DNA from: a virus
DNA length: 64,000 bases
UHGV virus genome: UHGV-0125682
Strand: one strand, 5' to 3'
This document shows, piece after piece, positions 1,525 to 43,656 of this stretch; position 1 is the stretch's first letter, and every line of letters starts with the position of its first letter. The position numbers and the translations under genes were made by a program. A model generated the notes under the pieces. The model was not told the origin of the DNA, did no database searches, and worked only from the letters and a program-made list of their open reading frames with translations.

Positions 1525-4500
1525 TTGAACAAGTCAGTTACTTCCGCGCTATCCGAAGCAGCAGACATTAACAGTGTTATTGCGCTGGTTTCTTCATTAG
1601 AGAGGCGAGAAACACGCCAGGGGCGCAGTAGTTACGTAGTCACCAGTAAAGGGGCAGAGGTAAAGACGGCTTTTAAGGTCGTTGATGCCAGCAGTCTGAT
1701 CATTTCGAACAACCTTGACGGTACGATTAATCCGGCCTTCCCGGAAGAACTCCAGCCACGTGACCGTACACGGCTATCAAGCAAACTCCAGGTTAACCGT
1801 ATTGCCTCCAATTTACGCCCGGCACAATTAACGGATTCCGGCATGAGCAGCCACGGAGCGCCGATAGTTGGTCCGGACAACGTTGTTGAATCCGGCAACG
1901 GAAGGAGCATGGGTATCTGGCGTGCCTATGAGCAAGGGCAGGCGGATGAATATCGCCAGTACCTGATCGATCATGCAAAAGAGTTTGGTCTGAATCCTGA
2001 CGACATTTCACAAATGTCTATGCCCGTATTGGTGCGAGAAAGACTCACAGATGTAGACCGCGCACAATTTGCCCGCGATTCAAACATCAGCGATCTGCAA
2101 GAGATGGCTGCAAGTGAAAAAGCGTATGCGGATGCGCAATTTCTCACTGAGAGCGTCATGGCGCTATTTAATCCTTCAGATGATGGAAATCTACTGGCGC
2201 GGTCCAATGATGCGTTTATTCGTGCGTTTTTGCGCGAAATAGGTGATACGGCGACGGCAGGTTTGCTTACTGCCGATGGGCGTCCAACGAAACAACTTAT
2301 CGACCGCATCCAGAATGCAATTTTTGCCAAAGCGTACAAGGATGAAAGGCTTGTTCGGCTGGTGGCGGAAGAGCCAGATCCGGAAATGCGTAACATTCTT
2401 ACCGCATTAAATACGGCAGCCAGCGATTTTGCGCAAATGCAGTCGCTTTCAGGTGATGTTCACCATGACACGGTAACCGGACTGGTAGACGGTATAGAGC
2501 AATTGAATGGTCTGGATAAACAGGCTATTGCCGCGCTACAGGAAGCAATTAACCTTGTTCGTGAAGCAAAAGATAACGGTCAGGCAGTAGAAGAGGTGAT
2601 CGCACAGCGTGGATTGTTTGGAGATAGCACTCCGGAAGCAGAAGCGCTTGCTCTGTTTATTGTTGCCAACAACCGAAGCGCTAAGCGAATGGGGGCAGCT
2701 TTCAAGAAACTGGCGCAAAAAATTAACGATGAACTTATTCACCAGCAACAAGCGTTAGGCGATATGTTCGGCGGCGGAGATGTCGATCTGCGTAGCATTT
2801 TATCTGCCGTTTCTGATGAAATTGAGGCTGAGTATGGCGAAGGTAAAGGGCTTAATTTCGCCATGTTTGAATCGGTTTCAGGAGAGGTCGAACCATACAT
2901 TTCAAAGCTAATTGCTGATGCGACCAGCGTGGAGGACTTGATCCGAATCGTGAAGGTGTCAGAAAAAATTAAGGAGTCCGCAAAAAAAATAAAGCGCAAT
3001 GTATTTTTGGAACTTGGTTTTTATATTCGCAATGTCACCGTTAATGAGATTAAGGAGTGGGCTAAACGTTATGGATACAGCGACGCTGTGTTAACAACGA
3101 TGTTATTGTCTTATCAACGCAGCAATTTTTATGCTAACGCACTGCGTGACGCGATTGAAAAAGGAGATGAAGCTCCTTCGCTCGCAGATGAAAGAAATAT
3201 TGATTGTGATATTGAAACGTTTTGCAACATATCAGAAGAAGGCGTGCCCGCTGAACAATTTATACGTGTTTTACATAATGCAGCAAAACATATTCCTGAT
3301 GACTTTAGTATTGATGAATTGCGCAATGGTTGTCTTGTTTGGTTAGGTAACTATTTAAAATCTCCAGCGTCTATTGCAGAGAAAACAGCTTTAAGATTTA
3401 GAAAGGAAATGAATAAAGCTGGAAGCGCAGAAGAGATGGTGTGCATAATCCAAAATACTTTGAAGTTATTCAAAAAGAGCTTGCATAATATCGACGATAT
3501 TATGGCGGCTGGTAGGAAAATAACAGCCAGTGTCGGAGTTAGCTCTGAACTAACGGCAGAGGAGATCGCTGATGCGTATATTGAGACACTTGTCAGGCTT
3601 AAGGAGATAGTGGAATTAGCAGAGCATTCCTCATATTACGGAATCAAGGAGCGTGTTGACTTTACTATAGAACAAATCAATAAAGTTAGGTCAAATAAGG
3701 AAAAACTCACTGACTACCTTGCTGATGTTTTGCACCAGAATGATCATGGGATTGGATATGATCTGAAAAAAATGCTTGTTTTTAATCTGGACATACCGGA
3801 AGACTTGCAAGCAGAACTATATGAAATAGCTTCATTAACACGTGGACAAAAAGCCTATCCTAATGCGCTTGAAAATGTAGTACATAAAAAAGTCAGAGCC
3901 GCATTTGACATGATTCTTGAATCGTCAAATGTGTCACATGACCAGTCTAAGGAATGGAGTCGTGGGATTGCTATTTCTGATGAAGCAGAGCAGTTAAGTG
4001 GTCACGATAATGAAACTTTCTCCCGTAAAGCATACAGTATTCGCGAGACGATTGAAAAAGCCTATATTATTTCAGGAGGGACTTTATCTACATTAAAAAA
4101 TATTAACCACAAGAACAATGTTCGTGCTTTTGCAAGTCGAAATGGGAATATAACAATTGATGCTAATAGTGATCACGAGCGTGTATTATGGCATGAAATA
4201 GGTCACCATATAGAACATTCAAATCCCCATCTATTGGAGAGGGCCAAAGCCTTCATTAAATCAAAAACTAACGGTAAAGTTTCTTATCATAATATTGGTA
4301 GCCGTGGCAGTGCTGAGTATTTGGTGCGAACCGACCTAAGTCATGGATATATGTCTAAAATTTATATGGAAAATACGGTAAGTTCTGTCAGCGGCAGATT
4401 TATATCAAAGCCACCTGCATTAAGCAATTGCAGGGCGACTGAGATTTTTTCTATGGCCTTGCAGATGTATGCCGATCCGGAGCAGGCGACTAACTCTGTA

Positions 4501-8351: not shown

Positions 8352-8369
8352 AGTTAAATTTCTAACATA
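8352..8369 (+). promoter_or_regulatory. operator-like 17-bp repeat (TTTCTAACA core)
   Basis: aaatttctaacatag upstream of repL-like gene. Confidence 0.55.
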
Positions 8370-26579: not shown

Positions 26580-26972
26580 ATGGAGCATATCAGCAGCGCA
26601 GAAATTGCGGATATCATGATTAGGGCTGACTGCTATCTGACAGTCACCGAAATCACCACTCTAGCTAAAGAAAAATATCCTCACCTTCATGTTTCACGCG
26701 TAAGTGTAACCAACATCATTCGGCATTTTGTGCGGTCAAGCCGAGCTATTTGTGAGCTTGATGATCGTGTTTACCCACGGAAATACTGGTTGCATGGCCT
26801 GAACGGATATCAGTTCAAGGTGCGCGGGCGCACGCCTGAATACGGTAGCTTACTGGTTAAAAACTGTAGCAGGAAATCAGTCGAACAGGCGCGAAAAGAG
26901 CAACGAGAGCTGGTGGACATGGCGAATAAGCTGTGGAATGCCGCCGTTAAAAAGCGTGGTGTTGCTTTATGA
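26580..26972 (+). CDS. hypothetical protein, possible late-gene activator (Lpa position upstream of pacA)
   Basis: Position only; stop overlaps pacA start. Confidence 0.35.
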   Translation: MEHISSAEIADIMIRADCYLTVTEITTLAKEKYPHLHVSRVSVTNIIRHFVRSSRAICELDDRVYPRKYWLHGLNGYQFKVRGRTPEYGSLLVKNCSRKSVEQARKEQRELVDMANKLWNAAVKKRGVAL

Positions 26973-28333
26973 GTCTGGTTAATTGGGAGGAGCACCGCGC
27001 CCGCTTTATAGCGTTGCGTGAAGAAAAAGGGATCACTGTAAAGGAATACTGTGAGGAGCATGGCCTTAGCTTCAATACAGCCAGAAAGCATCTCAATATG
27101 AAAAAAAATGAGGTGCGGTCGCAGGTAAAGACAACAAAAAAAAGCACCAAATCACCTGAAAAAAAACGGGCGGGAAGAGCAACAAAAAAGCTGGAAGAGG
27201 GTGCAGAAAAAACAAAATTTACAGAAATTGACAATTCGCAGGGCGCAGGTTCTTTCCGAAGTATGCCGAGAAAGAAAACTTCGGATCATGAAAATAATGC
27301 AAATAATAACAATGAGATAAAAGAATCTGTCAGGAGATCATTGCGCGAAAAAATGGCGAAAATGATCCCCGAAGAAGATAAAAGCGCCCCAAAAATTGAG
27401 GGATCTTCAGCAATGATCCCTGGCGGTGCTGTGCAGCGTGCCACATTGCCCACTACGAATGTGGCTCGCGATATGATGAAGAACGGCGCAGAAGAACACC
27501 TGCGGTTAGCAATTCAAATGGCGCAAGAGCGCGCACTTCAGTATCAAAGCATTGTTGATCAGGAGGCCGAACGTCTACAGGCGGAAATAGACGCCTTGGG
27601 CGATAAAGAGCCAGAAGGAATGCACCCTGGGCAGCGCCTTCTCGGTCTAATCAGTGACGCTGCCTACTACATGAATGATTTTATCAGTAGGTTGGCAGCT
27701 ATATATCAGTCCGAACAAAAGCTGCGACAGGGGGATGAAAAGCTTCGTCAGAGCGCTCGCCAGCAAGCATTCAAAGAGGCTGAGGCCAGAGAAAAACTCG
27801 AATTAGCACGCCTACAGGCCGAACAGCGTGGCAAAGAGATTGAATATCGCATTGGCGCTGACGCACGCGCAGCCAGAGTTATCGCCGCCGCTATACGTAT
27901 GCGTGAGCGCGAGGAACTGGATGATATCAGTGTTGCTGAATACATCGAGCGCCAGGGGGTCAGCGTCCCGGCTATCCTCGCGGCGCGCGCGGCGAAAGCT
28001 ATCACTCTTCTCGAACCACCTGTTTCTGACGTCAATGATGTTGATGATGAACAGCTGGACAAAGAGGCAAGGGAGTTTGCAACGCTTCAGGCTAACCATC
28101 CGCAATGGCTGGCAGAGCGCCGGGCGGATGTGGCAACCATTGTTGAAGAATTGGGGTGCGGAGATTACGACCGCAATGGCGAGCGTAAAGCTGGAGAATT
28201 CGAGGCCAACGACGAAGAGCTGGATATTGACCCTTCGGCAACGGCTGAAATTTACGGTGATTATGATGCATCTGATGCAGGGTATGACGCCGGAGATGAT
28301 GATATCGCGATAGAACCGCCGGAGGATGATTAA
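26969..28333 (+). CDS. pacA: terminase small subunit PacA-like
   Basis: Immediately upstream of and overlapping terminase large subunit; N-terminal HTH-like segment; contains GATC cluster. Confidence 0.65.
   Translation: MSLVNWEEHRARFIALREEKGITVKEYCEEHGLSFNTARKHLNMKKNEVRSQVKTTKKSTKSPEKKRAGRATKKLEEGAEKTKFTEIDNSQGAGSFRSMPRKKTSDHENNANNNNEIKESVRRSLREKMAKMIPEEDKSAPKIEGSSAMIPGGAVQRATLPTTNVARDMMKNGAEEHLRLAIQMAQERALQYQSIVDQEAERLQAEIDALGDKEPEGMHPGQRLLGLISDAAYYMNDFISRLAAIYQSEQKLRQGDEKLRQSARQQAFKEAEAREKLELARLQAEQRGKEIEYRIGADARAARVIAAAIRMREREELDDISVAEYIERQGVSVPAILAARAAKAITLLEPPVSDVNDVDDEQLDKEAREFATLQANHPQWLAERRADVATIVEELGCGDYDRNGERKAGEFEANDEELDIDPSATAEIYGDYDASDAGYDAGDDDIAIEPPEDD
27280..27420 (+). promoter_or_regulatory. 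candidate pac site (GATC cluster)
   Basis: Five GATC in 135 bp (27284, 27336, 27364, 27402, 27415), two as TGATCC, inside pacA. Confidence 0.45.
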
Positions 28334-29841
28334 TGGCTGGCGGGCGCAAGATTAAATGCGTCACCAGCGATCCACGCTGGCGCGATATGGTAATCAAATA
28401 CCGCTACAACTTTACCCAAGCTGTTGTCGATATTTTTGGGATGTTCCCCTCCCACCAGCAGCAGCAGATCATTCAGTCAGTGCAGGAAACGGGGAGTAGG
28501 ACTACCGTCACGTCCGGACACGGAACGGGGAAGTCGTCCCTTACCGCGATGTTGCTGTTGATTTTTATGATCCTGTTCCCCGATGCCCGTGTCATCATTG
28601 TTGCTAACAAGATAGGCCAGGTAAAAACAGGCGTATTCAAATACGTTAAACAGTATTGGGCGAATGCAGTTAAGCGTCATGGGTGGTTGCAGACCTATTT
28701 TGTCCTCTCTGACACCATGTTTTATGAGCGCTCCCGTAAGGGGATTTGGGAAGTTCTCTGCAAAGGTTATCGACTCGGCAACGAAGAAGCGCTGGCGGGG
28801 GAACATGCGGCACATTTGCTTCTAATTCTGGATGAAGCATCTGGTATATCTGATAAGGCGATCGGCGTAATGACCGGTGCTCTTACTGAAGAAGATAACC
28901 GGATGTTGATGCTATCCCAGCCAACAAGGCCAAGTGGTTATTTCTACGATTCGCACCATTCTCAAGCAAAAACCCCAGACAACCCGAAAGGGATCTGGAC
29001 AGCAATTGTTCTTAACTCGGAAGAATCACCGTTCGTCACACCACAATTCATCAAGCAGAAGCTTCTGGAATATGGCGGGCGCGATTCTATTGAGTACATG
29101 GTCAAGGTGCTTGGTCAGTTCCCACGAGAAATTAACGGCTATTTGCTTGGTCGTGATGAATGCGATCGCGCAGCTCGCCGCAAGGTGTTGTTGGAGAAAA
29201 ACTGGGGATGGGTGGCAACGGCTGACGTTGGTAATGGGCGAGATAAGTCGGTCCTCAACATCTGCAAGGTATCTGGTCACAGGGATAAGCGGCGCGTTGT
29301 TAACTTTAAGGTAATGGAGATGCCTGGCACTATGGACCCATTGGCCTTTGCTGACTTCATATATAACGAATGTACGCCGGAAAAATACCCGAATATAACA
29401 ATCGCGGTTGATGCCGATGGTTTTGGTTCTGATACGTGTGCGCAGTTGGTGCGTCGTGGTGCGAACCCGGTACGTATTCGGTGGGGAAAACCCATGTTTG
29501 CAAACAAAGACAGGGAGCGATTTGTTAATCAGCGTGCCTACGCAAATATTATCGCGCGAGATGCCATAAAGTCAGGGCGTATGCGGATAGACAGTGACCC
29601 TAAAACGGCAGAGCAAGCGTCAAAAATCCCCTTTTTACTGAATGAAGAAGGGAAAATGGCGATGATGCGCAAAGAGCACATGCGGCAAAAGCTAAACATC
29701 AAATCGCCTGACCGATGGGATACCTACTGCTTCACTATGCTGGTGGACTATGTGCCTGCTAATGAAGATATTGGTGCCGAAATGGCAACTTTTCGGGATC
29801 AGGTTCTGGCGGATATCGAAATGCCGGATCTGGATATATAA
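28333..29841 (+). CDS. pacB: terminase large subunit PacB-like
   Basis: Walker A SGHGTGKSS, Walker B LLLILDEASG, C-terminal acidic nuclease-type residues (AVDADGFGSD). Confidence 0.85.
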   Translation: MAGGRKIKCVTSDPRWRDMVIKYRYNFTQAVVDIFGMFPSHQQQQIIQSVQETGSRTTVTSGHGTGKSSLTAMLLLIFMILFPDARVIIVANKIGQVKTGVFKYVKQYWANAVKRHGWLQTYFVLSDTMFYERSRKGIWEVLCKGYRLGNEEALAGEHAAHLLLILDEASGISDKAIGVMTGALTEEDNRMLMLSQPTRPSGYFYDSHHSQAKTPDNPKGIWTAIVLNSEESPFVTPQFIKQKLLEYGGRDSIEYMVKVLGQFPREINGYLLGRDECDRAARRKVLLEKNWGWVATADVGNGRDKSVLNICKVSGHRDKRRVVNFKVMEMPGTMDPLAFADFIYNECTPEKYPNITIAVDADGFGSDTCAQLVRRGANPVRIRWGKPMFANKDRERFVNQRAYANIIARDAIKSGRMRIDSDPKTAEQASKIPFLLNEEGKMAMMRKEHMRQKLNIKSPDRWDTYCFTMLVDYVPANEDIGAEMATFRDQVLADIEMPDLDI

Positions 29842-29869: not shown

Positions 29870-30907
29870 TTACCAGAGCTTCGCGGCGTACTGCGTTTGG
29901 GGGAATGTGTATCCGTAACGTTCTTCGATTGCTTTGCCGTATTTTTTACGAGCTTCATTCAGTTTAATGCCGGTCAGGTCGTCTCCAGAGGCCATCATTA
30001 CGTCTAACAATTCCAGATCCATTTTATCCAACCTTGCCATTGCTTCACGTGATGTACGTATCTTACGCTCAATGATATGGCGAATAGCCGGATCGGCATC
30101 CTCCAGCATCTTAGCGGATTTCTGCTTAAGGCTTTCATTGCGAATATCGATGTTCCTTAAGATGTACGACTTCGCAACGTAGCTTGGCTGGTGTTTTTCC
30201 AGGTCACGAACACGATATAAGTTAAAATCGCCGAGAAGGCTGCATGGTACCGATTCGACGCCAGAATAAATTGTAATGCTCCGGCGTTCACCAACATTAT
30301 TGACAACGGGGATCGTTGTCTTCGGTAGTCTTGCGAAAACCAATGCGCCATGTGCGCCAACTCTAAAGCGAGAAAGGGCATTGCTGCCTTCGATGTTTGT
30401 TGTCAGCACAACATCTGTATATGCCTCTTTACGCGCCCGGTAGATCTCGCCTTCAGGCTCAGCTTCAAAGAAGCGCTGTTCTTCTTCAAGAGCACCTACG
30501 ATTTGAGAAAAAACCCTATTTTTCAGGCTTTTCTTTATGATTTTGTCGTATTTTTTTAGCAATTGTTCACGTGTAAATGTACGTGTTGTTGTAGCGCTTT
30601 GCACAACGACATGCGTGCTTTGATTGGTGTCCTCAATGATGAATGGGATCGGAGAATATACAGACTCAACAATGTTCGACGCTTTGCCGTCGGCATCGCG
30701 GCACATGTCAACGAAGGCTTTCCATTCAGCAAGACATTTTTCAGCTTCTTCTAATATGTTTTGGTCATGCGTTAATGCAACATGGCGGAATTCCTCGCCA
30801 GCATAACTGGTATCATGGAAAACAGAGTTTGCGACCACCAGCTCTTTCCACCGTTCAGCGGTTTGCAGGAACCGTTTGTACTCTTTCTCGATCGACTTCT
30901 TACTCAT
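29870..30907 (-). CDS. hypothetical protein in the P1 c1-equivalent position (candidate immunity repressor)
   Basis: Only gene between pacB and the rox-like site; operator copy 14 bp upstream of its start. Confidence 0.4.
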   Translation of the reverse strand: MSKKSIEKEYKRFLQTAERWKELVVANSVFHDTSYAGEEFRHVALTHDQNILEEAEKCLAEWKAFVDMCRDADGKASNIVESVYSPIPFIIEDTNQSTHVVVQSATTTRTFTREQLLKKYDKIIKKSLKNRVFSQIVGALEEEQRFFEAEPEGEIYRARKEAYTDVVLTTNIEGSNALSRFRVGAHGALVFARLPKTTIPVVNNVGERRSITIYSGVESVPCSLLGDFNLYRVRDLEKHQPSYVAKSYILRNIDIRNESLKQKSAKMLEDADPAIRHIIERKIRTSREAMARLDKMDLELLDVMMASGDDLTGIKLNEARKKYGKAIEERYGYTFPQTQYAAKLW

Positions 30908-31301: not shown

Positions 31302-32330
31302 ATGGGCGAATTAATTATCTCTGGCAGTTCCGGTGGTTTTCTGCGCAACATTGGCAAAGAGTACCAGGAAGCCGCAGAAAACTTTATGCGGTTCATGAAT
31401 GACCAGGGAGCTTATGCGCCGAATACTCTGCGCGACCTCCGTTTGGTGTTTCATTCCTGGGCGCGCTGGTGTCACGCTCGCCAGCTTGCCTGGTTTCCGA
31501 TCTCACCAGAAATGGCCCGCGAGTATTTTCTTCAGCTGCATGATGCCGATCTGGCTTCGACCACCATTGATAAGCACTACGCCATGCTGAACATGCTGCT
31601 TTCGCATTGTGGCCTTCCACCACTTTCGGATGATAAAAGTGTTTCTCTGGCTATGCGGCGCATCCGGCGCGAAGCGGCAACTGAAAAAGGCGAACGAACA
31701 GGCCAGGCTATACCGCTGCGGTGGGACGATCTGAAACTGCTCGACGTCCTGTTGTCCAGGTCTGAACGGCTGGTGGCCCTGCGCAACCGGGCTTTTCTCT
31801 TTGTTGCATACAATACGCTGATGCGTATGTCGGAAATCTCGCGTATTCGTGTAGGAGATCTGGACCAAACAGGTGACACTGTCACGCTACATATTTCACA
31901 CACGAAGACAATAACGACCGCCGCCGGGCTTGATAAGGTGCTTTCCCGTCGCACTACCGCTGTGCTGAATGACTGGCTGGATGTTTCCGGGCTTCGCGAA
32001 CATCCTGACGCAGTGCTGTTCCCGCCGATACACCGTAGCAATAAGGCCAGGATCACGATAACGCCCCTTACTGCACCTGCAATGGAGAAAATATTCAGCG
32101 ACGCCTGGGTGTTGCTGAATAAAGGAGATGCTACGCCAAACAAAGGAAGATACCGGACGTGGACCGGGCATAGTGCACGCGTCGGGGCCGCTATCGATAT
32201 GGCTGAAAAGCAGGTCTCTATGGTGGAGATTATGCAGGAAGGAACCTGGAAGAAACCGGAAACACTTATGCGGTATCTGCGCCGTGGCGGCGTGTCTGTG
32301 GGGGCTAATAGCCGCCTGATGGATTTATAA
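31302..32330 (+). CDS. Cre/Dre-like tyrosine site-specific recombinase
   Basis: Alignable with Cre along its length (WFPxxPE, MRRIRRE, AFLxxAYNTLxRxxEIxRIRVxD, SGHSARVGAAxDMA, catalytic Tyr region MRYLR). Confidence 0.9.
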   Translation: MGELIISGSSGGFLRNIGKEYQEAAENFMRFMNDQGAYAPNTLRDLRLVFHSWARWCHARQLAWFPISPEMAREYFLQLHDADLASTTIDKHYAMLNMLLSHCGLPPLSDDKSVSLAMRRIRREAATEKGERTGQAIPLRWDDLKLLDVLLSRSERLVALRNRAFLFVAYNTLMRMSEISRIRVGDLDQTGDTVTLHISHTKTITTAAGLDKVLSRRTTAVLNDWLDVSGLREHPDAVLFPPIHRSNKARITITPLTAPAMEKIFSDAWVLLNKGDATPNKGRYRTWTGHSARVGAAIDMAEKQVSMVEIMQEGTWKKPETLMRYLRRGGVSVGANSRLMDL

Positions 32331-32349
32331 ATTAAATTTCTAACACATC
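32331..32349 (+). promoter_or_regulatory. operator-like repeat
   Basis: attaaatttctaacacatc upstream of 32404 operon. Confidence 0.55.
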
Positions 32350-32403: not shown

Positions 32404-32748
32404 TTGCAGAGTCAAATCACGGAATCAAGACGCTTCAAGGTGGATGGTTACACCGTAACCTTCGCCGCTGGTGTTAAGAACAGTCATGCTGTCGTTGTGT
32501 TCGGCATCATGACCGGGCTTGAGGCCGTCCCTGTGTTTACCCTCGAAAAAAACTGGCGAAATCTGGAGGAAGCAGAAAGCTACGTCCGGAAAGTAACCAT
32601 CATTGCCGCCGAAAAACTCCTGGCCCACTATCAGGAAAATTATCGCACTATGGTCGAGAAGATTAATCTCGCTTTCACTCGCCCCACTACCGGCTTTATT
32701 GCACCGGATACTAATGCAGGTCGATATCCTGCAAGGGGGCGTCGGTGA
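32404..32748 (+). CDS. hypothetical protein (114 aa)
   Basis: ORF, first gene of operon. Confidence 0.5.
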   Translation: MQSQITESRRFKVDGYTVTFAAGVKNSHAVVVFGIMTGLEAVPVFTLEKNWRNLEEAESYVRKVTIIAAEKLLAHYQENYRTMVEKINLAFTRPTTGFIAPDTNAGRYPARGRR

Positions 32749-33221
32749 AAACTTATTACCCATCTCTGAATTGTTACCCGTCTTCCTATCCAGAATTATC
32801 CGGGAAGCTGTTAGCTCTATTAGCTAAAGCACCTACGGAATGGTTTAAGCCAGTCGTTATCAATCCACACTTCCTGGATTACGGATCTGTTCGCACTCGT
32901 AACGAACTCAAAAACCTACTGGCGCATGGATTCATTCGACACCGTGCCGGGAAAGGCTATCAGTTAGCGATTGCGCCAGAAGAGGCCGTGCGGCTATTCG
33001 CATATCGTGACAGCCAGACAAAAGCTCGGGTAATAGCTCAAATACTTCTTAACGGCAGCACCTATGCCCGCCAGTTTGGCGGCGACACGTCGCAGTTCTT
33101 GCGGGCGGTGCGATCGCTGGAGGAGCAAGGGGTTATTGAAAGTTCCTGTCTTCCTGTTCCTACCGTTCCACATATCAAACGTCGGGTTTACACCTTCACG
33201 CAGAGAGCTAAAAAACAATGA
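32745..33221 (+). CDS. hypothetical protein (158 aa)
   Basis: Overlapping stop/start. Confidence 0.5.
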   Translation: MKTYYPSLNCYPSSYPELSGKLLALLAKAPTEWFKPVVINPHFLDYGSVRTRNELKNLLAHGFIRHRAGKGYQLAIAPEEAVRLFAYRDSQTKARVIAQILLNGSTYARQFGGDTSQFLRAVRSLEEQGVIESSCLPVPTVPHIKRRVYTFTQRAKKQ

Positions 33222-33712
33222 TTTACGTAAAAGTGAAACGCCTACATCCGGCAGCAAAACTTCCAGCTTATGCCACCTCCGGATCGGCGGCGATGGATTT
33301 TGAGGCTGTTGAAATAAAACCATGCGTCGATAGCAATGGTGCAATTTCCTCAAGCTGGTGGGTGTACACCGGACTGGCTATGGAGATCCCGCCCGGCTGG
33401 TGTCTGAAACTCTATCCGCGCTCCGGATTGGGCTGCAAAAAACATACTCGCTTGGCTAACTGCGTAGGAATTATCGACTCCGATTATCGCGGTGAAATCA
33501 TGGCAAAACTGATTACTGATCCAGGCGGGGAAGTCGTTCGTCTCAAGCCTGGAATGGCTGTCATGCAAGGCATTTTTGAGCGTGTTGAACAAGTCTCACT
33601 AGTCGAGGTTGAGGAACTCAACGAAACGGAGCGTGGTGCTGGTGGCTTTGGTAGCACATCGGAAGGCCACTTTGAAATAAAGCGTTCACCGCTTCAGTAC
33701 GAAAAGTTATAA
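33218..33712 (+). CDS. dut: dUTPase (trimeric dUTP diphosphatase)
   Basis: dUTPase motifs GSAAMD, GIIDSDYRGE, ERGAGGFGSTS. Confidence 0.85.
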   Translation: MIYVKVKRLHPAAKLPAYATSGSAAMDFEAVEIKPCVDSNGAISSSWWVYTGLAMEIPPGWCLKLYPRSGLGCKKHTRLANCVGIIDSDYRGEIMAKLITDPGGEVVRLKPGMAVMQGIFERVEQVSLVEVEELNETERGAGGFGSTSEGHFEIKRSPLQYEKL

Positions 33713-33726
33713 GCAGAGAAAAGACC

Positions 33727-34494
33727 ATGAATAACATGAAAACAATTCAATACCGCTTGCGTAATGGCCTGCTGGTGGCTGTTAACGCCGACATGTCACT
33801 GCCGTTTGACACGATTGAACGCACTATCATGACGTATCTCGGCTTTAATGAAGAGCTGAATGAAGAGCATGGCGTAGCTATATGGAGTGATGCAGAAAGC
33901 GGCGTTCATCGTTACATCACCGCCAGGGGCAAAGACTACTCTCTTGAAGAACTGTTTACCCTTGCACAGTCTTTCGAATGTGTAGCATTAGACCTGTTTA
34001 ATGATCCTGCTATAGCGCAACGACTTATACGCGAGTTTGGGCTATCCGTTACACCAATTATCTTTAAAAATGGCAGCCTGACTGGCACATGGCGCGTAGA
34101 ACGCATCTCAAACTACCTTCCATATAACCGACAGTTAAATGGAGTAATCTCCGGCGTTAATCAGCCCGTAGCGTGTGAAAATGTAAACCTGGTTGTCGCT
34201 GTTTTGGCAACCGCATGTCGTGTTATCGGTTTGGCTAAACAGGCATTTATTCATTTCCCAAATGGTGCAGAAGGTAGCGCAGAGATTATCGCGTGTGATT
34301 TCGAATTTACCTGGATGCTACGCGAATATCTGGACCAAACAGTATTCCGTGCCGAAGAACTGGATATGTATATCACGTCAACGATTCCAGACGATGTGCG
34401 AGCTGAAGCAATCGCTACAGCCAGGGCGAAATGCCGTGCGGCGATTGCAGAACAGGCCAAAGAAGAAGTTAAGGAAGTGGCAGATGGCGACTAA
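33727..34494 (+). CDS. hypothetical protein (255 aa), coupled to terminase paralog
   Basis: Stop overlaps start of downstream gene by 11 nt. Confidence 0.5.
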   Translation: MNNMKTIQYRLRNGLLVAVNADMSLPFDTIERTIMTYLGFNEELNEEHGVAIWSDAESGVHRYITARGKDYSLEELFTLAQSFECVALDLFNDPAIAQRLIREFGLSVTPIIFKNGSLTGTWRVERISNYLPYNRQLNGVISGVNQPVACENVNLVVAVLATACRVIGLAKQAFIHFPNGAEGSAEIIACDFEFTWMLREYLDQTVFRAEELDMYITSTIPDDVRAEAIATARAKCRAAIAEQAKEEVKEVADGD

Positions 34495-35578
34495 GAGCAA
34501 TATTTATAAAGATCCGCGCTGGCTGTCGCTGGTGGAGAAATATAAAGACAATTGGGTACTGGCAGCAAAAGAATTGTTTGATATTGATTTAAGCCACCAG
34601 CAACAACAAATTGTTGAAGCTATACAGCCCAATAATGCAAAAGCTACTGTCACCACTCCGTATGGGATCGGACGACCGCAAGTGCTTGCTGTTATTAGTA
34701 CCCTTTATACGATTATGTATCCTGATTCCCGGACAGTAATTGTTTATCCAAAATCAAATGTTTGCAAAAGAGGAATTGTTGCATATGTGTGGCAATGTTG
34801 GGAGGCATTGCTGAAAAAACAACCTTTTATCATTGAGTATTTTAAGGTCGGTGATAGCGGTCTGATGTTCAATGAATTTTGGGGAATGTGCTTTTGTAAC
34901 TACCGCCTTAACTATGAAGATAGCATTGCAGGTCACTACGCCGACCATCTTTTATTCATTATTGTGGATTCCGCACATATCAGCGATCGGGCATACAGCA
35001 TTGTGTGGGCAAGCATGACTAGTGGTGATTCACGCATATTGCTCACTTCAATTCCGTCACCAGAGGAAATAGGCTTTTTTTATGATTCACATCATGGACG
35101 TGCTTTAGCTGAAGATAATCCGAGTGGTGTATATAAAGCCATTAAGCTGAGTGCGGAGGATTCACCATTTATTACCCAAGAATATCTTGATCATTTTGCC
35201 GAAAGGTATGGCGGGCGAAATAGTGATGACTATCGTCGTATGATTCTTGGTGAGTTCCCTGGTATTAGGGAGGCTGTTCTTGAATCAGATATGCCGAAGA
35301 CAATGCGCTTTTCGATGCCTGATGGTAGTGAATGGACAATGCCATTACGAGTGATAGCCCGGCATCATGCGCAGCACCACGCCAAAAAACATGGCGTCAC
35401 AACATTAGAATGGTTGAAATCGCACACTATTCCACTCTTCACTGCAGATCACAATGCTATCGTTGAGTGGGCAAAAACAATTCCGTGGGAGCATGTCGCT
35501 GAATATGCTCACATGCTAAAACCGCCGAAAGACAGGCACGAAATTAGCTGGCTGACAGCCGAAAAAATCATTGAATGA
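34484..35578 (+). CDS. terminase-large-subunit ATPase-domain paralog with degenerate Walker motifs, no nuclease domain
   Basis: Aligns to PacB residues about 20-260 (SHQQQQI, DSHH, EDNPxG, SPFxT, YGGR) but Walker A reads YGIGRPQ and Walker B reads IIVDSAH; start reassigned to ATG 34484 with AAGGAAG RBS. Confidence 0.7.
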   Translation: MATKSNIYKDPRWLSLVEKYKDNWVLAAKELFDIDLSHQQQQIVEAIQPNNAKATVTTPYGIGRPQVLAVISTLYTIMYPDSRTVIVYPKSNVCKRGIVAYVWQCWEALLKKQPFIIEYFKVGDSGLMFNEFWGMCFCNYRLNYEDSIAGHYADHLLFIIVDSAHISDRAYSIVWASMTSGDSRILLTSIPSPEEIGFFYDSHHGRALAEDNPSGVYKAIKLSAEDSPFITQEYLDHFAERYGGRNSDDYRRMILGEFPGIREAVLESDMPKTMRFSMPDGSEWTMPLRVIARHHAQHHAKKHGVTTLEWLKSHTIPLFTADHNAIVEWAKTIPWEHVAEYAHMLKPPKDRHEISWLTAEKIIE

Positions 35579-43578: not shown

Positions 43579-43618
43579 AATGTATACCGACTCTGTTTTG
43601 TTCCGAGCGGTAAAATAA

Positions 43619-43656
43619 TATGTTAGAAAACTAAAATCAATGTTCTAACACATTTT
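43619..43656. promoter_or_regulatory. tandem divergent operator-like repeats
   Basis: atgttagaaaactaaaat and aatgttctaacacatttt, upstream of the leftward operon starting at 43578. Confidence 0.55.

Follow-up and report, generated by a model that had tools for sequence, protein, structure and literature searches.

We analysed a 64,000-nucleotide stretch of the virus genome UHGV-0125682 (the window; all coordinates are window positions unless another sequence is named). It is a plasmid prophage of the P1 family, of the D6 type, and is 97.7% identical to phage D6 around the region considered here, where the two can be aligned. An open reading frame (ORF) at 34484-35578 on the plus strand encodes a protein of 364 amino acids that resembles PacB, the large terminase subunit (TerL) of this phage family, and that we call the paralog. 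It is the last gene of an operon with the order orf117-orf116-dut-isaA-paralog, whose end lies head-to-head with doc/phd. The gene is not in the packaging module: it lies about 4.6 kb downstream of pacAB, with dre, two ORFs, dut and isaA in between. The features of the locus are as follows.

26969-28333: pacA
28333-29841, plus strand: PacB, the functional large terminase, used as the reference for the paralog
31302-32330: Dre recombinase (D6-type)
32332-32348, plus strand: operator-like 17-mer TTAAATTTCTAACACAT, probably a D6-type C1 operator, fronting the operon
32404-32748, plus strand: first ORF of the operon, homolog of D6 orf117, phrog_1968
32745-33221, plus strand: second ORF of the operon, homolog of D6 orf116, phrog_6669, overlapping each neighbour by 4 nucleotides
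33218-33712, plus strand: dut, encoding dUTPase (Pfam PF00692, NCBIfam)
33727-34494, plus strand: homolog of IsaA, 255 amino acids, phrog_2326, the obligate upstream partner of the paralog
34471-34477, plus strand: Shine-Dalgarno sequence AAGGAAG of the paralog, within the 3' end of isaA and 6 nucleotides before the ATG
34484-35263, plus strand: paralog residues 1-260, with the PacB/TerL ATPase fold but without its catalytic motifs
34658-34681, plus strand: degenerate Walker A equivalent PYGIGRPQ, residues 59-66, placed by alignment with five PacB/TerL sequences
34949-34978, plus strand: degenerate Walker B equivalent LLFIIVDSAH, residues 156-165
35267-35578, plus strand: paralog residues ~262-364 and the stop codon, a separate domain of ~100 amino acids composed of a beta-hairpin and helices
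35614-36221, minus strand: doc/phd toxin-antitoxin pair

A sequence-only reading of the window had described this gene as a TerL paralog with degenerate ATPase motifs, and its similarity to PacB across the ATPase domain proved not to be spurious. In BLASTP, residues 7-259 of the paralog aligned with residues 10-264 of the window's PacB, with 96 identities over 258 residues (37%, E 7e-57). The motifs SHQQQQI, FYDSHH, DNPxG, SPFxT and YGGR quoted in that reading are present in both proteins, and the N-terminal ~50 residues of PacB (DPRW..L..KY..) are kept in the paralog as well. The similarity ends at the LGxFP linker before the nuclease domain, and the last ~100 amino acids are unrelated to the PacB nuclease. 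The Walker motifs are degenerate, as had been claimed. The Walker A equivalent reads TPYGIGRPQ versus SGHGTGKSS in PacB, with Pro59 in place of an invariant glycine and Arg64 in place of the Walker A lysine. The Walker B equivalent reads LLFIIVDSAH versus LLLILDEASG, with Val161 at the position of the Walker B aspartate and Asp162 at that of the catalytic glutamate.

The same losses were found in the other two subtypes of the paralog when all three were aligned with five PacB/TerL sequences reaching out to a Xanthomonas phage. The Walker A equivalents of these subtypes are GIGQKT and GIGETS, and their Walker B equivalents are IIVTEAA and IVINSAE. The invariant residues K67, G62, D167, N189 and Q96 are lost in all three subtypes: K67 is replaced by R, Q or E, G62 by P, and D167 by V, T or I, while the catalytic E168 corresponds to D, E or N and is thus not conserved. 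Other positions that are invariant in the enzymes are kept, namely the Q-rich motif, two P-loop glycines, FYDSHH, GG and GxF, together with RxLxxS, which is probably the TerL coupling motif. Judging from these residues, the paralog is very unlikely to hydrolyse ATP and has probably lost ATP binding as well. A sequencing error or a pseudogene as the source of the aberrant motifs was ruled out by the recurrence of the losses in three diverged subtypes, the intact frames and the low ratio of nonsynonymous to synonymous substitution rates (dN/dS, see below).

The structure prediction proposed in the sequence-only reading agreed with a TerL origin. The AlphaFold model of the paralog has a mean predicted local distance difference test (pLDDT) score of 65, the N-terminal half being better than the rest, and in a Foldseek search against the PDB each of the top 30 matches was a TerL, either its ATPase domain or the full protein (E 1e-7 to 2e-4), the best being the ATPase domains of P74-26, T4 gp17, D6E, HK97 and Sf6 (E 1e-7 to 1e-4). 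A PDB sequence search with a profile of the paralog and PacB gave no match at E≤1. The search against TerL profiles, likewise proposed, gave nothing above threshold: there was no Pfam TerL match (Terminase_6N), and NCBIfam TIGR01547 scored 13 bits against a cut-off of 105 bits. PacB itself reached only 19.6 bits against its 22-bit cut-off, showing that curated TerL profiles are weak for this lineage. PHROG 5902 matched over the full length (E 1.1e-164), with residues 4-363 aligned to positions 2-358 of a profile of 359.

Across the ATPase domain, identity is 44-54% between paralog subtypes and 31-36% between a subtype and any PacB, compared with ~60% among the PacBs of P1, D6 and Vibrio elements. 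The paralog lineage is therefore either old or fast-evolving. Other TerLs are more distant from the paralog than the P1-family PacBs. The paralog lacks four defining features and does not belong among the functional TerLs; it is a pseudo-enzyme derived from a TerL, with an obligate partner and a domain combination that is new. We conclude with high confidence that it arose from the ATPase domain of a PacB-type TerL, kept the fold and the non-catalytic motifs, lost the ATP residues and the nuclease, was fused at the linker to another domain, and is coupled to IsaA in an optional but selectively maintained cassette.

This resemblance could mean that the paralog regulates packaging: its dead ATPase domain, made early, would bind PacA or join PacB oligomers and so restrain or time pac cleavage and the packaging of the phage's own DNA, or it would chaperone terminase assembly. 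TerL N-termini often bind the small terminase subunit (TerS), e.g. gpA and gpNu1 of lambda, and the paralog has retained the PacB N-terminus along with FYDSHH, NPxG, GGR and GxFP; its closest relatives, moreover, are the PacBs of the P1 family. However, FYDSHH is kept even in the Xanthomonas Rb1 TerL and is therefore a mark of the fold family rather than of a P1-specific interface. The distribution of the gene, described below, also bears on this explanation.

The C-terminal part had been described as an unrelated His-rich tail replacing the nuclease domain. The replacement stands, but the tail is a ~100-amino-acid domain of a widespread family, matching phrog_17928 with E 3e-14. A HMMER search of 1.8 billion cluster representatives returned 196 relatives at E≤1e-3, mostly stand-alone proteins of 90-130 amino acids, with the conserved core MPDGSxW-VP..IA..(R/H)A ... 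TLPLF ... WA ... W. No Pfam family was found in a scan of 59 members; the match to DUF5076 (PF16826) remained below threshold (13.2 bits, cut-off 25 bits), and the only PDB entry matched by the profile was 3IC3 (E 0.3). Among the 150 best matches, fusion to a terminase ATPase domain occurs only in the P1-family protein. Fusions to a DUF1351-like protein and, in one relative, to a Lar restriction-alleviation domain were also seen in the family.

The genomic neighbourhoods of some relatives could be read. One lies two genes after a DnaB-like helicase gene in the P1-like Cronobacter phage JK004; another, in Xanthomonas phage SAC, is fused to a DUF1351-like protein and has Erf, exonuclease and SSB just downstream; and a third, on a phage contig that encodes PolB, has an MT-A70 methylase on one side and a RecA-like gene on the other, with dCMP deaminase and ThyX nearby (L022, 671-9166). 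Further relatives are inside a block of ThyX, DNMK and NAMPT genes, in a RadC module, or near DUF2303 and H-NS-like genes. On one phage contig, stand-alone relatives were also seen beside a NAD-salvage pair of NAMPT and NMNAT-Nudix (L026, 5529-8010). We conclude that the C-terminal ~100 amino acids are not a random tail but a distinct, widespread domain of phage early regions for replication, recombination and nucleotide metabolism, and that these regions mix genes of DNA metabolism with possible anti-defence genes.

Such neighbours would fit a replication or recombination accessory, in which the C-terminal domain would anchor the protein to assemblies of SSB, recombinase or helicase, while the terminase-like domain would bind DNA or couple the formation and processing of concatemers to later packaging; IsaA would possibly be a DNA-structure-binding or nuclease-like protein. 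Besides the helicase, Erf/exonuclease/SSB, RecA-like and ThyX/DNMK/RadC contexts, this is consistent with the position of the gene pair after ssb in P1-type elements and after dut in the window. On the other hand, the paralog differs from core replication functions in being optional and hypervariable, no motif for DNA binding or nuclease activity was identified, and the structural matches of IsaA are weak and come from a model with a pLDDT of 66. The neighbourhood is also unspecific, since phage early regions mix DNA metabolism with anti-defence. We therefore hold this explanation to be improbable, though credible.

Comparison of two D6-type subtypes showed that the C-terminal domain is ~95% conserved, and that DNA identity is 46-67% upstream but 88-97% from the C-terminal domain into doc. 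We did not accept this conservation as proof of stronger selection, as a mosaic recombination boundary explains the jump in identity. The doc/phd block marks this boundary, which extends into the C-terminal domain. The doc/phd DNA is 95% identical to that of P1, far above the conservation of the surrounding backbone.

The coupling of the paralog to the gene upstream was confirmed: the two overlap by 11 nucleotides (34484-34494), and the overlap and the Shine-Dalgarno sequence are conserved. The upstream protein had been regarded as unknown, but it is a homolog of P1 IsaA, which is named though uncharacterised. It matches phrog_2326 (E 2.9e-132) and is 47% identical to P1 IsaA and, over residues 1-225, 97% identical to D6 orf113, annotated in the D6 record as 'similar to P1 isaA'. 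P1 isaA was non-essential in a CRISPRi screen (PMC10695390). A concatenated query of IsaA and the paralog was covered to at least 80% at one contiguous place in 164 plasmid records, compared with 163 records containing the paralog (search described below), which makes IsaA an obligate neighbour: the paralog practically never occurs without IsaA directly upstream. IsaA occurs alone in ~38% of the records, and neither gene is present in ~40%, as estimated from an evenly spaced sample of the same search. The dN/dS of IsaA is 0.10-0.57 (Nei-Gojobori).

The distribution of the paralog was determined by tblastn against 72,556 plasmids, in line with the survey of P1- and D6-like genomes that the sequence-only reading had called for. 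The search matched 761 records, essentially through PacB, and the full-length paralog is present in 163 of these (~21%), with at least 95% identity in 34 records, 60-80% in 10 and ~52% in ~119. Plasmid NZ_CP034790.1 encodes an identical protein. The gene has thus been seen before; that reading had not recognised it as a described P1 gene, which is correct for reference P1, where IS1 and isaB occupy the site, but it is known to databases through PHROG 5902 and ~160 plasmid records. It is labelled there as hypothetical, as PHROG 5902 (function unknown) or, wrongly, as 'terminase large subunit'. Literature searches on isaA function, phage-plasmid terminase paralogs and inactive terminase-like proteins retrieved no description of it.

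In the wild P1-type phage MH422554, the gene order is ssb-isaA-paralog-hxr. Reference P1 matches this phage at 98% identity as far as the final base of isaA and then from hxr onwards, with IS1 and isaB between (P1 AF234172 4533-6245 corresponds to MH422554 6003-7121). Laboratory P1 is therefore a natural knockout of the paralog. P1 IsaB was ruled out as a remnant of the paralog, since tblastn showed no similarity and the stretch from the end of isaA to hxr is cleanly replaced. The hxr-ddrB-ddrA-darA anti-restriction operon adjoins the pair at the P1-type site, which differs from that in the window, where the cassette is located between dut and doc. Phage D6 also has no paralog; its IsaA is of the same type through residue 225, diverges beyond it and is followed by a pdcA-like gene (3041-4047 in D6). 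The IsaA match in plasmids without the paralog is likewise confined to residues 1-225, pointing to a recurrent breakpoint. Among P1-like plasmids, the isaA-IS1-isaB segment is already known to be hypervariable (PMC6906374, PMC9603915).

This distribution argues against the regulation of packaging mentioned above: packaging and transduction are normal in reference P1 and D6, which lack the paralog, only ~21% of the P1-family plasmids have it, and it is in a hypervariable accessory region apart from the late packaging genes. Between the window and CP104667, which carry diverged paralog subtypes, PacB is 92% and Dre 93% identical, but PacA only 74% (26969-28333 in the window, 781-2145 in sequence L013), so co-variation of PacA with the paralog would be possible. 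The variation of PacA limits the use of co-evolution as an argument against binding to PacA or PacB. The small terminase PacA is itself a variable gene in the P1 family. All in all, we regard a packaging regulator as unlikely.

Conflict genes typically show such a patchy distribution, with strongly diverged subtypes (44-54% identity) in backbones that are otherwise similar, and the paralog might accordingly serve competition between elements, poisoning the PacB motors of rival P1-family phages or satellites by one dead subunit per ring while sparing the diverged resident PacB, to which it is only 36% identical. In P1-like elements, the variable regions do carry exclusion and restriction functions (PMC9603915). 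Against this, the operon has a repressor operator in front and is probably off in the lysogen, when exclusion would be needed, and a protein without the TerL C-terminal domain may fail to dock on the packaging motor. Furthermore, P1 is not known to have a satellite, although no search aimed at one was made. This explanation therefore appears distinctly unlikely to us.

The paralog has a length of 364-366 amino acids and an intact frame in three subtypes and ~160 records. It is a maintained gene, since dN/dS (Nei-Gojobori) is 0.07-0.30 for close and distant allele pairs and for the ATPase-like and C-terminal parts alike. The copy in the P1-type phage vB_EcoM-813R1 (3230-4300 of that phage) has 356 amino acids; its match to the C-terminal domain is split in two, and a frameshift near the C-terminus is probable. 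This frameshifted copy, the loss of the catalytic motifs and the nuclease domain, and the absence of the gene from P1 and D6 could be taken to indicate a functionless, decaying remnant of a duplicated pacB. However, the intact frames, the dN/dS values, the conserved isaA overlap and Shine-Dalgarno sequence and the precise fusion to a second conserved domain make this extremely improbable.

The operon upstream of the paralog is as the sequence-only reading had described it, with a dUTPase gene (Pfam PF00692, E 5.6e-15; NCBIfam dUTP diphosphatase, E 9e-36, 122.7 bits against a 103-bit cut-off) and an operator in front. The first ORF starts 56 nucleotides past the 17-mer at 32332-32348, and this 17-mer has 9 copies in the window, compared with 0.26 expected at up to 3 mismatches (positions 8354, 9555, 20499, 21748, 32332, 43618/43637, 48845 and 60457, with an inverted pair at 43618-43653). 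The nine 17-mers are probably the operator set of a D6-type C1 repressor and differ from the P1 operator consensus. A strict sigma-70 scan detected no promoter near the operator. The protein at the c1 repressor position (29870-30907, minus strand) has 345 amino acids, no Pfam match and 80-90% identity among D6-type plasmids; C1 of P1 is shorter, with 283 amino acids. The neighbouring gene taken for cre does encode a recombinase, but it is Dre of the D6 type.

In sister plasmids, a Tad2-like gene (PF11195/DUF2829; E values of 1e-18 to 1e-23, above threshold) is situated between dut and isaA or, at the P1-type site, ahead of isaA (L004, 7542-7982; L013, 7545-8195; L020, 36-713). The trio of Tad2-like gene, isaA and paralog is also present at the P1-type site next to hxr, and because it is found at two different loci (D6-type and P1-type), it behaves as a mobile cassette. 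Tad2 sequesters the Thoeris signal and thereby neutralises Thoeris (bioRxiv 10.1101/2023.05.01.538930). The adjacency of the Tad2-like gene suggests a shared accessory or anti-defence island, and the context as a whole favours an accessory or anti-defence role over core packaging. At E≤0.1, neither the paralog nor IsaA nor the C-terminal domain matched any model of PADLOC, which covers defence and not anti-defence.

The terminase fold itself is of interest in this context. The ATPase domain of a terminase is by itself enough to trigger the immune sensors EcAvs2 and Upx, and EcAvs2 recognition involves terminase-bound ATP and a bridging ATP; the same study reports T4 vs.8, a stand-alone TerL-ATPase paralog of unknown role for which its authors speculate on anti-defence (bioRxiv 10.64898/2026.04.30.721860). 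In a study of KpAvs2, some factor seemed to block recognition of one phage's terminase during infection (PMC11564622). Having no P-loop lysine, no Walker B acid and no nuclease domain, the paralog can be neither a motor nor the pac nuclease and must therefore act by binding. We tentatively favour an early mimic of the terminase, free of nucleotide, whose role with IsaA would be counter-defence or titration. The paralog would be made early, before the late-expressed PacAB, and would join IsaA in tying up factors that recognise the terminase ATPase fold. The favoured targets would be host immune sensors of terminase ATPase domains of the Avs1-3 or Upx type, for which the paralog would be a decoy. 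That the IsaA/pseudo-PacB pair is a new counter-defence that saturates or mis-assembles Avs1-3 or Upx receptors before PacB appears is a bolder proposal, and we think it unlikely to hold in this specific form.

Several observations weigh against the mimic. Partner binding by the paralog or IsaA is something we infer from context, and the structure models have only moderate quality (pLDDT 65-66). The window has no Tad2-like gene, isaA beginning there 14 nucleotides after dut (33712-33727), so that it either lost this member or never had it. The association of the C-terminal relatives with Erf, RecA-like, SSB, DnaB and nucleotide-metabolism genes points equally to DNA metabolism, and the 26% difference in PacA between plasmids of different subtypes makes co-evolution with the phage's own packaging proteins possible. 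Finally, a terminase-fold protein might activate Avs2 or Upx instead of blocking them: T4 vs.8 is toxic with EcAvs2, and Upx needs no catalytic residues (bioRxiv 10.64898/2026.04.30.721860).

The gene matters for several reasons. P1 is among the most used phages in bacterial genetics, and a conserved accessory module has been overlooked; laboratory P1 carries IS1 in the place of the paralog, and loss to an insertion sequence may be the reason for this neglect. P1/D6-family plasmid prophages are frequent in E. coli and Salmonella from clinical and livestock sources, and terminase ATPase domains are major triggers of bacterial immunity (Avs1-3, Upx). A look-alike that is dead but selectively maintained, with a Tad2-like gene beside it, is a candidate anti-defence factor of the mimic type or, failing that, a candidate regulator or poison of the packaging motor. 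If it is a mimic, this would provide a function for an emerging class of phage TerL-ATPase look-alikes that are not terminases, such as T4 vs.8. In practice, the label 'terminase large subunit' can mislead terminase-based phage typing and phylogeny.

With regard to known systems, the locus corresponds to the hypervariable isaA/isaB region of P1 (RD-2): the gene upstream of the paralog is an IsaA homolog, and wild P1-type elements have the paralog between isaA and hxr, while P1 IsaB is unrelated to it. The link to the Tad2 sponges is one of position: at both loci, sister elements have a Tad2-like gene directly upstream of isaA and the paralog. In sequence, the sponges are unrelated to the paralog and IsaA. 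The C-terminus belongs to phrog_17928, a family with a sub-threshold resemblance to DUF5076 (3IC3); its other members are mostly stand-alone or fused to DUF1351 or Lar. With PacB, the TerL of P1 and D6, the paralog has in common the whole ATPase domain, the fold, the N-terminal helices, the Q-rich motif, FYDSHH, NPxG, GGR and GxFP. It differs in that the lysine of Walker A, one P-loop glycine and the aspartate of Walker B are gone, the catalytic glutamate is not conserved and the RNase H-like nuclease domain is missing; it is optional, is not beside pacA, and belongs to an early operator-fronted operon, whereas PacB is with the late genes. T4 vs.8 is likewise a lineage-restricted, phage-encoded paralog of the ATPase domain of the phage's own TerL, without a nuclease domain. 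However, vs.8 keeps Walker A and Walker B and was modelled with ATP, whereas the P1-family paralog has lost both motifs, and only the latter has an additional C-terminal domain and an obligate IsaA partner. Among 57 phage records matched by tblastn (E≤1e-5), no T4 or T4-like record was named in the 40 matches listed or in the tally of genera. The two proteins look like independent derivations from different TerL lineages and resemble each other in architecture only.

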